Below, one piece after another: positions 9,779-58,800 of a stretch of DNA of 64,000 nucleotides. The DNA is taken from contig OZ024755.1 of assembly GCA_964016885.1 (NCBI GenBank), forward strand, positions 20,584,001 to 20,648,000, given 5' to 3'. Below the pieces are notes generated by a model. The model ran no database searches and was not told where the DNA came from. It worked only from the letters and a program-made list of their open reading frames with translations. Both the position numbers and the translations under genes were made by a program. Each line of letters opens with the position of its first letter. Position 1 is the first letter of the stretch. This DNA is from Eledone cirrhosa. Taxonomy: Eukaryota.

Positions 9779-9828
9779 ACAGGCTGAATGAGTTGGGGCG
9801 TATAACCCAACGAAACCTAAGTACGTGT
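9779..9828 (+). ncRNA. Hammerhead ribozyme variant (one extra core nucleotide)
   Basis: ACAGG-CTGAATGA-GTTGGGgcgtataaCCCAAC-GAAA-cctaag-TA-CGTGT; perfect 6-bp stem II, one mismatch in stem I, flanked by (TA)n on both sides. Confidence 0.6.
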
Positions 9829-12132
9829 ATATGTCACTGCTGTAAGTAATTATATATATATATATACATCCACACATGTATGGAGACACCCAAAAAATGT
9901 ATACACACTTCAACAGCATTCTAATAAATACTGCCTATACAGGTAATCAAAGTAAATATTTTTGCAGGAAACCCTGTGTGTGTGTGTGTATGTGTATATA
10001 TGAAGTTAACAGATTGTTTTTTGTTTTTAAATTGCTAAAATTCCCCTTTCACGTAGTAAATACATAAAGAAATACGAAAGATATATACAACAAAGGAGAG
10101 ACGTATAAAGTTATTGTATATTAGTAACCAACTGACATTTATATAACTAAATATTAACCTTGTTATTATCCGCGGTAATGAATCGAGGTTTTTGGTTTAC
10201 CTCAATTTTACCCGAGTGGGTACTTGGTTGTTCCAGTGCCTCAGACTCGCTATCACCCGCCGTAATGTTACCAGTGTGTTAGCTTGCTTCAAAATGTATT
10301 AGAGGGAGCTCCGGTATTCCTTGTAGTGTGTGACCGACTGACACATTTAGTGTTTGCTTAATATTTTCTTTTGTTTTGATTGTATATTTTCAAATGAAAT
10401 ATTTATGTAATTACTAGAAATATACGTGTGTGTGTTGATTTTTGACAGCTATAGCATTTGTGTTTGTAATTTTAAACTATCTATATTACCAGCATATTAG
10501 TTGCAGAAAAAATGTGAACTTTGCTATTATGTAATTCCATCTACATCGTTTATTTCGATAAAATAAAATCTATTCCTATAAAATATTTAGTACATTTTGA
10601 TACGCATTCTATATGAAATAGATTACATGCAAAAAGAAATTGAGAGTGACCTACCTTGATATTGATCTCTTACGTTTAAAGTCAAATAAATTTAATCAAC
10701 TTAATGTGAACATGTAAACTTAATATAAACATTTTTCTTTCAGCGACGGAGAGCAAATATCTTTACTAAGCCTCTTGATGTAAGTACTGGTATAAACCAT
10801 CCTAAATATAATTTTCTTGTATCAAAGCAATTTCTACAATCAGGATTTAAAAAAAAAAAAAAAATCCTTTCTATAAACGATGTATATTTTAAATTGTCAG
10901 GCGTAAAGAATCGATCGATATGTCAATAATGAAAGTAAACAACACTAATGAATATAATACTTTCATTATTTAATACTCTGGATCTTTAATAAAGACATAA
11001 CACTGAATTTCCGATGGTTTGGTACCTCTTTTTATCCGGATATAATTATAGGTTCACCTTTAAATTTCCCGCGAGCTGTTGACTGATTCATTCATGTGAG
11101 GCTATTATCGCGTAGCAGCATTAGATTTAATTTTAAACATTTGTGTCGTTATATTGTCGTATTTGAGACGTAAGAAGTCTGTTTCCTATTTCGTAATATC
11201 TTTCTTGTAAAATATATAGTTCGGCATGACGGATAATCCGGCACAGATCTGGAACCAAGTGTGTCGGAAAATCGGTGTTGTATTTTGTACTAATGGAATA
11301 GTTTGTTTTTTGTTTTGTTTTGTTTTTTTTTGCTATTTTTTATACGAATATAATAACTGTTTATTAATATCACTTGAATATATACACACAAATAATATAT
11401 ACGGTACTTAATTACATAAATATTTCACATAGAAATATAAAAATCAAAACGAAAGAAAATTTTAAGTCAAAACTATGTCAATCGGTCACACATCACAAGG
11501 GGTGACGGACCTCTCTCTAATACTTTTTAAGGCAAGCCGACACACTCTCAAGGCACTGGAACAACCAAGCACCCTCATGGACACCACTTAATACCTCGGT
11601 AAGGCGAACCGCCAACGATGACAAGACATTCGTTGTCAGTGGCCCAGCTCCCCTCTCATGTCTCGAACGCCACAGGCTATATAATATATATATATACATA
11701 CTTTGCTGATAATACTCTATATTTTATAATTTTATTCCTTTCGGTTACAGATGCAGTGGAGGATATATCCCAAAGGGACTCTCTTCATACTTAAAATACA
11801 ATATATTTCTGTTAACTTCTATCTACCTTATATTTTTATTATTATTCCGCAACCATGTAGACTATTTATTCATGTAATCCATTTAAACGTCCGTATAGAG
11901 CCATGACAGACGGGAAAGTATCTAGTACTTAAGTGAATATAAACATTTTAAATATTTTCTGCAACCCTCTAGTCTATATATTTGTTTATTTTCTATCTAG
12001 TTTATATATGTAATATTTTTCTGCAACCCTCTAGACTATATATGTATGTTTACTTCTATCTAGCTTATATTTCTTATTGTGTTCTGTCTAGTTTATCTCA
12101 GCCACATCTCATACTATTGCACCTTTAAAGAA

Positions 12133-55800: not shown

Positions 55801-58800
55801 AACATTCTGAGAGATGGACAAGAGTGCTATACCTTTACTGCTGGAGATAACAGATTTGCTTCCCTTGATTTTGTAGACACTGACGATCTTAACATTCCTC
55901 CGCTCTATATCTTTCTATCTTTCTATCCATTCATCCATCCATCTCTCTCTATCTATCTATCTTTCTTGCCAGCCACCCATCCATCTATTTAGCCATCCAC
56001 CCATCCATCTAGCTAGCTAGCTATCCATCTATCTAGCCATACATCCATCTATTTAGCCGTCCTTATAAGACAGAAAAAGAAGTTGCCATTTATAACTATG
56101 AGGAATTGAATCCCATGGCTCAGATACCAGCTAGGCACTTTTAACCATATATATATATAGATAGATAGATAGATAGATAGATAGATAGATAGATAGATAG
56201 ATAGATAGTTAGAGATATACTAGTAAATTTGACCACAATTGAATTCGATTTTTCCCAATATATTATAGGGATTAGCAATTTCTAGATGCGTTACCTAACA
56301 TATTAATGAAACTTATGTAAATGTTATGAAATAAATCCCCTTGTACAGTAAACAGAGTATCCATATAAATCTTTATCTAATTATATATTATATATATATA
56401 TATATCATCATCATCATCATCATCGTTTCACGTCCATCTTCCACGCTTGCATGGGTTTGGACGGGAATTTTCCCACTTGAGGTAAGAGTGGTTGTCTTGC
56501 TCGTATAGGACTGTCTGGCGGGTTTTCTACGGCTGGATGCCCTTCCTAACACCAACCACGTTTACAGTGTGGACTGGGAGGTTTTTACCGTGTTACCTAC
56601 ACAGCCACATTACAGCGTGGACTGTCTGGCGGGTTTTCTACGGTTGGATACCCTTCCTAACACCAACCACGTTTACAGTGTGGACTGGGAGGTTTTTACT
56701 GTGTTACCTACACAGCCACATTACAGCGTGGACTGTGTGTGTTTTTTTTTTCGTGACACCTACACGGCCTCATTTATTTCGGACTGGATGTTGTGGTACC
56801 AACATAACTTTACATCGAAAGGGGTGGTGTGGATGGCGTGGGGGTGGTGGGACGGGGGGTGTATTTTTGTTAGAGGTGCCTACTGACTGTAGGTTTCACT
56901 TTGTACTTAGGCAAGCCGGGTCTTCTGTATTACTACGTAGCGCCAAAGATCTCGGTCCAGTGACATTGTCTTGGAGAGGTGTAAGTGTGTGAGGTCGGAA
57001 TTTACCAAGTCATCCCAGGTTTTTCTAGGTCTGCCTACTCCGTGGCTACCGTCTATTTTTATCGCCCTGCACTTTTTTATACAGCTGTCGTCTTTCATGC
57101 GCATCACGTTACCATACCAACGTAGTCTTCTCTCGAGTAAACAACATCTGATTCCTCTTATAACTAATTTCTCCCTTAGTTCATTTATGCTTTGCCGTTC
57201 ACGTATATTACTATTACACACATATATATATATCTAAAATAAACATATGAAACAATCACAGGGAATAATTTGTAAAGTGTGCTTACACACTTTACAAATT
57301 ATTCTCTGTGATTGTTTCATATGTTTATTTTAGATAAATATATATATATGTCAATCAATTACTAGTTGATACAAAATGTTCGGATCTATTGATTGGAATC
57401 TTTGAGCAGATTCTACAGTGGATATGGCGCATATCTCTCGGACATGACACCCTTAATTTAATTTTGGATATATATATATATATATATATTAATTGAAGAA
57501 GTATACTTATCTCTACATGAGTAATGAAACATATGTAAATGTTATGAAATAAATTCCCTTGTACAGTAAACGGAGTATCCATATAAATCTTTATCTAATT
57601 ATATATGTATATATATGTATGTATGTATATATATATATATATATATATATATATATATATATATATATATATAGATATATTAAACGAAGAAGTATACATA
57701 TCTCTACACGAGCATAGATACAAGTATAGGTACATACATACAGAGTGTCTAACTTATACTGAGTTTGGCTGTATGAAAGAGTTAATAAAATTAACAGATT
57801 CAGAGCCAAATAAAATCAAAGTCTCCTGATGATTTGGGATTTCTCACGATACTCTACTCGGAGTATCATTATTTTCCCACTGAAACTGTAGTAGGGACAT
57901 TAAAGTGAGTAAGTAAAGATTTTTTTCTTAATTTGTTTGCTTTTCCCATATTTGATTTTATATATAGATATACATATATTATATAAGATCTCAACACATG
58001 CATGCTACCTAAGGTTTCAAACATATATCCTATGCTTGCACATATGGTTATTTCAAGTAAAATGTATCAAAATAGTGGATACATACCCATGTTGGGAAAA
58101 AACGGCTGGTCTTAAAACCCTGCAGGCTATTTGCAATGGTAAATGTTCCAATGAAGAGCAGAATTGATAATAGAAAGGCATCTGGTACAAAGGCACAATC
58201 ACCAGTGATTTTACCAGCAATGTTCGTACAATTCAATTTAGTAAATGTATTATCAATAGGAAATATATCCATTATTTCATCAGTGGACAGAGAGAAATTA
58301 TTTTCTGTGTTGTTTATTATAGGATGTACTTCACACATACATTCAGTACTGTTTATTGGTACTTGTGTATGAAGTGCATAGTCCGAATTAATACCAATTA
58401 TCTTCTTAAAGGCTTCAGCTATAAAAATAATGGCGATCAAGCAAGCAAAACTTTCTTCAGTGAAACGAGTTATGTATCTAACTAAAGCACTCAGATCAAA
58501 AGCCACCACCAAAAGTAGAATAAGGGTTGTCCATAATCCAATCCAGCATCTTAATGGCAGGAAATCCAGTTTTCTTTCTCTGTAAATAAAATGTAGAAAT
58601 GTATAGTTCTAGGGGGGTAACAACAACAACACCTCTCAATATTAAACATAAGTGTATTGCTTCTATCATTTTTGGGAGGTACAGATGTTCATATTTTTCT
58701 GACAAAAATGACTAATTTTCACAGCAAAAATCCTACTCACCCTCTCCAAGATTGGAGACTTCAATGCCATTAATGTTCCCAGAGAGAGAAAGAGATAGAG

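Follow-up and report, generated by a model that had tools for sequence, protein, structure and literature searches.

Hammerhead motifs at (TA)n tracts of Eledone cirrhosa as probable clipped 3' ends of Penelope-like elements

Penelope-like elements (PLEs) of the Hydra clade that carry hammerhead ribozymes and insert into (TA)n tracts are already published, and an octopus family, Hydra-1_Obim, with a hammerhead and a (TA)n preference is among those of the supplement (PMC8557442). The minimal hammerheads of PLEs are of type I, lie in pseudo-long terminal repeats (pLTRs), occur mostly solo in truncated copies and form many families per genome (PMC4209133). Non-LTR retrozymes are pLTR-related, non-coding repeats with type I hammerheads, in tandem units of 150-450 bp expressed as circles, and 126,247 motifs are reported in the axolotl genome (PMC7229834; bioRxiv 10.64898/2026.07.22.740005). 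A repeat annotation for an octopus includes a count of recent Penelope families, and the word ribozyme never appears in its accessible text (PMC13282606). The window is a 64,000-nucleotide (nt) stretch from the 3.0-Gb genome of Eledone cirrhosa (contig OZ024755.1, positions 20584001-20648000), in which an earlier note had listed six hammerhead-like motifs and two weaker ones. These motifs are very probably the clipped 3' ends of several PLE families inserted in (TA)n and present in tens of thousands of copies, two of which (A and F) are tied to open reading frames (ORFs) for a reverse transcriptase (RT) and a GIY-YIG endonuclease. Given the published Hydra PLEs, the kind of element is a known one.

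Families are labelled after their window motifs (E, 9779+; G, 30104+; A, 30595-; F, 45546+; D, 45791-; B, 45905+; C, 57822+; H, the 3' half of 57486+). A strict descriptor, requiring exact CUGANGA, stem II, GAAA, a self-complementary stem III, a UH site and a stem I of at least 4 bp, finds three motifs in the window, with cores at 30651(-), 45910(+) and 57826(+). In local dinucleotide shuffles with the TA tracts preserved the mean is 0.01, and none of 100 reaches three. The same descriptor yields 26 motifs against 0.6 in shuffles in 60 spaced 10-kb stretches of the genome (600 kb), and 38 in 39 further stretches (390 kb), 14 of them within one tandem array. A relaxed descriptor, with stem III left unconstrained, gives 79 motifs in the whole 990 kb against 1.3 in shuffles, or 66 with the array collapsed. 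Stem III is nevertheless self-complementary in 46 of the 66, against 14.5 after letter shuffling (26 of the 46 belong to one superfamily), and different families use different palindromes. The earlier claim of PLE-associated type I hammerheads with a self-complementary stem III is borne out. Thirteen motifs in the 990 kb have a 9-nt stem III (3 bp and a 3-nt loop), which the strict descriptor misses.

On sequence criteria, seven of the eight listed motifs are members of genuine type I hammerhead families, and the coordinates given for them were correct. The copies at 30595-, 45905+ and 57822+ are intact, the last being one of the three best motifs and not a weak one; four others are decayed or variant. 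Exact CUGANGA and GAAA boxes with a UH site are present in these three and in 30104+ and 45791-, variant in families E and F, and lacking as a set at 57486. Three stems, open at stem I as in type I, are found in the strict hits; in the window, the stems of D and E are broken. The decayed motif 9779 belongs to family E, whose other copies show the 8-nt core in 10 of 13 cases and a palindromic stem III in 7 of 13. The decayed motif 45791 belongs to D, in which the core varies between copies and U4C is most frequent (4 of 13), 30104 is a member of G, and 45546 is a member of F, of which all 13 copies examined read CAGAAGA at the core. As a hammerhead, 57486 is rejected: its 5' 36 nt represent family C's long 3' end in antisense, and what follows is the 3' half of family H, which has no recognisable 5' core box upstream among the 11 loci examined. 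Nor is it a tandem-dimer relic with 57674, since both are family C tail ends.

All eight cassettes are multi-copy, with tens to thousands of candidates in the genome. The proposed plurality of (TA)n-associated families stands, as families A-H. Exact pattern counts over the whole genome, in which the unit is the motif and not the insertion, give 83,180 matches for the seven window families against none for reversed-pattern controls, and this is a floor: 58,011 for the A superfamily, 20,334 for F, 3,873 for B, 523 for D, 326 for E, 75 for G and 38 for C. The A superfamily is split evenly between strands (29,168 vs 28,843) with no chromosome-level bias, a figure that is silent on orientation to genes. 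The predicted density of about one motif per 10 kb is confirmed by 66 relaxed-descriptor motifs and 21 family F copies in the 990 kb; the relaxed-descriptor motifs extrapolate to roughly 200,000 canonical-core motifs in the genome, from a small non-random sample that counts both inverted arms. In comparison, 2,000-9,000 minimal motifs per genome are given in PMC4209133, where stem I is also shorter than here (5-8 bp, often bulged) and stem II does not reach the ~100 nt seen here.

The association with (TA)n is one-sided. A tract lies within 160 nt downstream of 19 of the 26 motifs in the 600 kb (random 11%) and of 33 of the 38 in the further 390 kb, 14 of these from the one array, but upstream tracts are not enriched (3 of 26; random 12%), and the expected enrichment beside (TA)n therefore holds for one flank only. 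Tracts of (TA)5 or more occur at ~2.1 per kb in the samples. Each well-sampled family has two discrete 3' ends, 85-140 nt apart, at ~51 and 143 nt past the cleavage site in A, 58 and 200 in B, 26 and 115 in F, and ~62 and 190 in C. The two distance bands seen in the 600 kb recur in the further 390 kb (25 of 38, array included; random 2.8%). The 5' ends are ragged and often run on as an inverted copy, and five of six head-to-head pairs combine one short and one long arm. Window copies end at the 3' ends of their families, except A, where another repeat intervenes. The 5' truncation, the inverted 5' arm and the optional tail at one end are those of endonuclease-containing PLEs, and the anatomy matches the tail and inverted-arm structure of PMC8557442 and the two internal RT start sites of PMC11167929. 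Tails of 85-140 nt differ from the 30-40 bp in the Fig. 2 legend of the former. Opposite-strand pairs 100-700 bp apart and a predicted action as dimers are shared with the minimal PLE hammerheads (PMC4209133). In the Poseidon element PAc the two start sites likewise give an optional tail, the target is AT-rich and the hammerhead lies upstream of the sites; PAc, however, belongs to another clade, its ORF begins inside the hammerhead (~160 nt past the cleavage site in F), and its start sites are inside a stem-loop that is AC-rich, whereas here a different hairpin stands just 3' of the sites (PMC11167929). Young F copies have long tracts (median 12.5 TA units among 42 ends selected for at least three units) and one locus, L229, has tracts at both ends, which favours, without proving, pre-existing (TA)n targets.

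A reading frame for RT and endonuclease precedes family F by ~930 nt in all 12 loci, which were chosen by that protein. Eight of them have a 713-codon frame, and in three (L240, L242, L246) the succession pLTR-ORF-pLTR is unbroken, the unit of L240 measuring 3.24 kb. An open 713-codon frame is present in 14 of the best 150 matches (97-100% identical over the query). The frame contains GLYRDD, a GIY-YIG-like motif, and CxCX5C, CxxC and CxH at residues 567, 665 and 693; A likewise has the CxCX5C linker, CxxC and CxH, and no CCHH is seen by eye, in agreement with Hydra. DK[TSG] stands at residue 118 in seven of the eight full F frames (NKT in L240), and RWR replaces RWK, as in the published Hydra-1_Crog (PMC8557442). 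Paired A motifs enclose a related ORF, 42% identical to that of F, in 9 of 10 loci, and L310 is a tandem copy of the window's A subfamily enclosing an ORF with a broken frame. A single ORF of ~710 aa, with RT before GIY-YIG, the CxCX5C linker, CxxC and CxH near the end, a DKT-type motif in most full frames and GLYRDD, as well as the hammerhead near the 3' end, common UU sites, (TA)n insertion and inverted 5' arms, are all shared with the Hydra clade, to which F and A would belong on these diagnostic motifs (PMC8557442). The hammerhead sequences of F and A differ from that of Hydra-1_Obim, and they are thus different families. Stem III is mostly an even palindrome here and mostly has a loop of 1-2 nt in published Hydra, and the Hydra cores tabled there are all canonical, unlike U4A in F and an insertion in E.

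The linkage of E and H to ORFs is weaker than that of A and F: in 3 of 26 loci a Hydra-like ORF fragment is found on the strand of E, ~290-370 nt upstream of it, and a related endonuclease fragment precedes H in 1 of 12. The search for linked PLE frames proposed earlier is accordingly positive for A and F, weakly so for E and H, and negative for B and, among the few extended loci, for C, D and (with at most one case) G. Non-autonomous elements, supposed to be the general case, appear to be represented only by B, A and F being 5'-truncated ends of ORF-bearing PLEs. Family B is likely non-autonomous, because its 3.1-kb hammerhead-to-hammerhead unit has no stop-free frame of more than 100 codons and ~2.7 kb of the unit is found again, at 94%, in another locus. 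A link of B to a neighbouring GIY-YIG element in L218 is rejected, as other copies of that element lack B. A Pfam search with GIY-YIG brings out other RT and GIY-YIG elements, with open frames of 477-1096 codons and not tied to the window cassettes, in L213, L214, L215, L216 and L232; L216, L217 and L219 have a hammerhead of their own ~390 nt past the stop.

The two variant cores are fixed: U4A is present in 20,334 exact copies of F against 84 with the canonical base, and the extra base in 326 of E against one without. An insertion after A6 is reported to give low activity, as is U4C, and 'U4A' has no occurrence in the accessible text (PMC3088659); the U4A core of F, the youngest family, would likely weaken cleavage. 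In superfamily A, copies picked only by homology of the 3' flank hold the core in register in 20 of 23 cases. The alignment keeps 17 of 23 candidate rows (three without a core and three second arms of one locus were left out), and its six fixed core bases are invariant while N7 and stem II vary, which suggests that the source elements kept a working ribozyme. One pair of the anchored stem II is U-A in nine and C-G in five of the 17 copies. Palindromic stems III are predicted to pair between two molecules, in duplexes of -3 to -13 kcal/mol, and to give no hairpin as monomers; monomer folds of the motifs do not take the hammerhead shape (z -2.5 to +0.6) and are uninformative. PLE hammerhead variants that cleave as dimers were reportedly described in a 2017 paper. 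Solo genomic copies are likely inert relics, and solo minimal hammerheads did not cleave in vitro (PMC4209133). Four presumed RNA sequencing runs compared with L240 gave three short pieces less than 90% alike, which says nothing on expression.

Eight of 13 family groups (A, B, E, F, H and three more) have, just past the short end, a hairpin with RCUC/GAGY as its closing stem (background 1.3%); where A, B and F occur in tandem it comes after the long end as well. Its closing pairs switch between A-U and G-C across families. By eye the hairpin is visible in the consensus ends of published Hydra elements of three other phyla, from a coral, a sea cucumber and a copepod (PMC8557442), in the main text of which 'hairpin' does not occur. 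It was noticed post hoc, several positive families having been seen by eye before the scripted count. Against its generality, none follows the short end in C (0/7), D (0/11), G (0/11) and two small families, in which short ends are poorly estimated. Tentatively, and at slightly less than even likelihood, Hydra-clade PLEs may position their RT through a conserved RNA hairpin 5-15 nt 3' of each start site, one per site creating the tail; carriage of it would let non-coding passengers such as B borrow the enzyme; and hammerhead cleavage would be dispensable, because the youngest family passed 20,000 copies with a U4A core. In PAc, hammerhead mutants inserted normally in vitro (PMC11167929). Loci L001-L010 represent a further TA-bounded family with a hammerhead above the Rfam Hammerhead_1 cut-off, two 3' ends and the same downstream hairpin.

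In the insertion process proposed here, the endonuclease would nick a (TA)n tract, and the nicked end would pair with a few A/U bases at one of two start sites inside the element RNA, which lie 25-65 or 110-200 nt beyond the hammerhead. In family F both 3' ends are followed by TAT in the template. RT would copy back through the hammerhead and usually stop early, and the hammerhead would be present in most fragments because it is adjacent to the start sites. A second priming at the other start site would produce the inverted arm. In source elements the hammerhead may cut tandem transcripts, as a dimer or with the help of a protein.

Several results weigh against the derivation from PLEs. In extended loci no protein partner is found for C (0/2) or D (0/6), and for G in at most one of three, and many of the linked ORFs are broken. 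The F-type ORF fragment has no Pfam family, so that its assignment to RT, endonuclease and clade depends on motifs recognised by eye, and the 3.24-kb unit of F slightly exceeds the <3 kb reported for Hydra. The covariation expected of the stems is not significant within superfamily A (228/500 shuffles; one two-sided change), though 94.5% of cells pair. In the window itself, tblastn finds no match to a PLE protein. As regards over-reading of the motifs, loose descriptors, since dropped, are at chance in the window (14 vs 9.8 in shuffles; 4 of 25 equally high), bare CUGANGA is mildly enriched (34 vs 25.7 +/- 5.1), and the Rfam scan suggested earlier returns 128 hits in the window at E<=10 with no hammerhead family among them. 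The chance level of the loose descriptors and the Rfam result, with the chance chimera at 57486 (one motif in eight), would suit chance matches in AT-rich, microsatellite-rich DNA, an explanation of vanishingly small probability, as the excess under the strict and relaxed descriptors refutes it and Rfam Hammerhead_1 passes its cut-off at 18 of 74 scored places elsewhere in the same genome. Scarcely more credible is a co-option by the host of dispersed hammerheads for cutting intronic or 3'-end RNA: intact cores are very dense and two window cassettes lie in an SLC4 intron, but both are antisense to the gene, four of the seven window copies are decayed or variant, strand counts are symmetric, and solo copies of the minimal type are inactive in vitro as cited above.

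An unlikely, though stronger, rival is that most cassettes are short non-autonomous or retrozyme-like units, mobile in the form of small self-cleaved RNAs that may be circular. The frameless and recurrent B unit agrees with it, as do hammerhead arrays elsewhere in the genome, and retrozymes have been derived from pLTRs (bioRxiv 2026.07.22.740005). For A and F, which make up 94% of the exact counts and lead into PLE ORFs, it is refuted. A cleaved monomer would both start and end at the cleavage site, whereas the hammerhead is whole in the copies, which stop 25-200 nt past it and have ragged 5' ends. The window cassettes, which the earlier note thought might be retrozymes, are solo or inverted and, not being tandem, are not retrozymes; no tandem array of 150-450 bp is present in the window. 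They are dispersed truncation products, and only arrays such as L270 fit the retrozyme pattern. L270:1-10000 (G000:C28:110000001-110010000) is a retrozyme-like satellite of 420 bp in at least 23.7 copies of 92% identity, 14 of them with a strict hammerhead, and its family is also dispersed, as an inverted pair in L253. L226:2492-6495 is an array with a unit of ~1 kb, five hammerheads and a 97-nt stem II region, and has a dispersed copy in L254. Array families that are also found dispersed fit the proposed pLTR origin of retrozymes.

Features of the window are collected in the table. The repeat next to family A looks like a short interspersed nuclear element. Between 45450 and 46200 a single interrupted (TA)n tract has taken up the unrelated families F, D and B one beside another, and tracts thus accumulate repeated insertions. 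Long inverted repeats at 36372-36597 (centred on a TA tract) and 57236-57333, with microRNA-like Rfam scores below the cut-off, may be other inverted insertions. The genes represented are Ocnus/Janus, with an ORF at 4526-4906 (-), snurportin, with an exon near 18703 (+), and an SLC4 bicarbonate transporter, with eight exons within 50137-61175 (-), to which the intronic family C cassette is antisense.

Features of the window related to hammerhead cassettes (positions within the window)
Feature	Position	Strand	Remarks
Family E pLTR remnant; type I hammerhead, decayed, core of 8 nt (extra base after A6)	9779..9850	+	ends at family short 3' end; TA tracts on both sides
Family G cassette	30030..30322	+	hammerhead 30092-30159, bulged stem I, palindromic stem III; long 3' end
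Short interspersed repeat, abundant, many window copies	30388..30555		abuts family A 3' end
Family A pLTR remnant	30559..30723	-	hammerhead 30595-30659 of type I, intact, with stem I of 8 bp and palindromic stem III; 3' end broken by another repeat
(TA)n tract at family F 5' truncation point	45450..45543		
Family F pLTR remnant, Hydra-type PLE (putative)	45544..45706	+	hammerhead 45546-45596 with U4A core, 4-bp stem III, UU site; long 3' end, 115 nt past cleavage site
(TA)n tract common to 3' ends of F (+) and D (-)	45707..45744		
Family D cassette	45745..45886	-	hammerhead 45787-45861, decayed, with CpG decay in the palindromic stem III; short 3' end
Family B pLTR remnant, truncated inside stem I	45905..46155	+	intact hammerhead 45905-45964; long 3' end
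Second family F fragment, absent from the earlier list	49382..49522		inverted arrangement, without 5' core box
Second family H fragment, absent from the earlier list	56304..56382	+	
Terminal 36 nt of family C tail	57486..57521	-	+ strand reading mimics hammerhead 5' half by chance
Family H fragment	57522..57600	+	GAAA, palindromic stem III and 3' flank only
Inverted family C tail, 5' arm of family C insertion	57674..57817	-	
Family C pLTR remnant	57818..57960	+	hammerhead 57821-57898 intact, with a single G-U pair in stem III; short 3' end

Literature searches, which extended to neither subscription papers nor Repbase, returned no cephalopod hammerhead census, no PLE core with U4A and no report of this hairpin, and within the parts of supplements covered no count near 200,000 motifs, no fixed core insertion as in E and no tails of 85-140 nt. 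The families are new members of the known Hydra-type PLEs, and their value lies in their scale and in the natural experiments they offer on the role of the hammerhead and the placement of internal priming. One genome holds an unbroken 713-codon, (TA)n-targeting PLE with a non-canonical core beside a sister family whose core is canonical, and it also has a non-coding passenger and arrays of retrozyme-like type. The hairpin is a candidate cis-element for a microsatellite-targeting RT, and much of the (TA)n-flanking sequence of this genome is PLE debris that Rfam misses.

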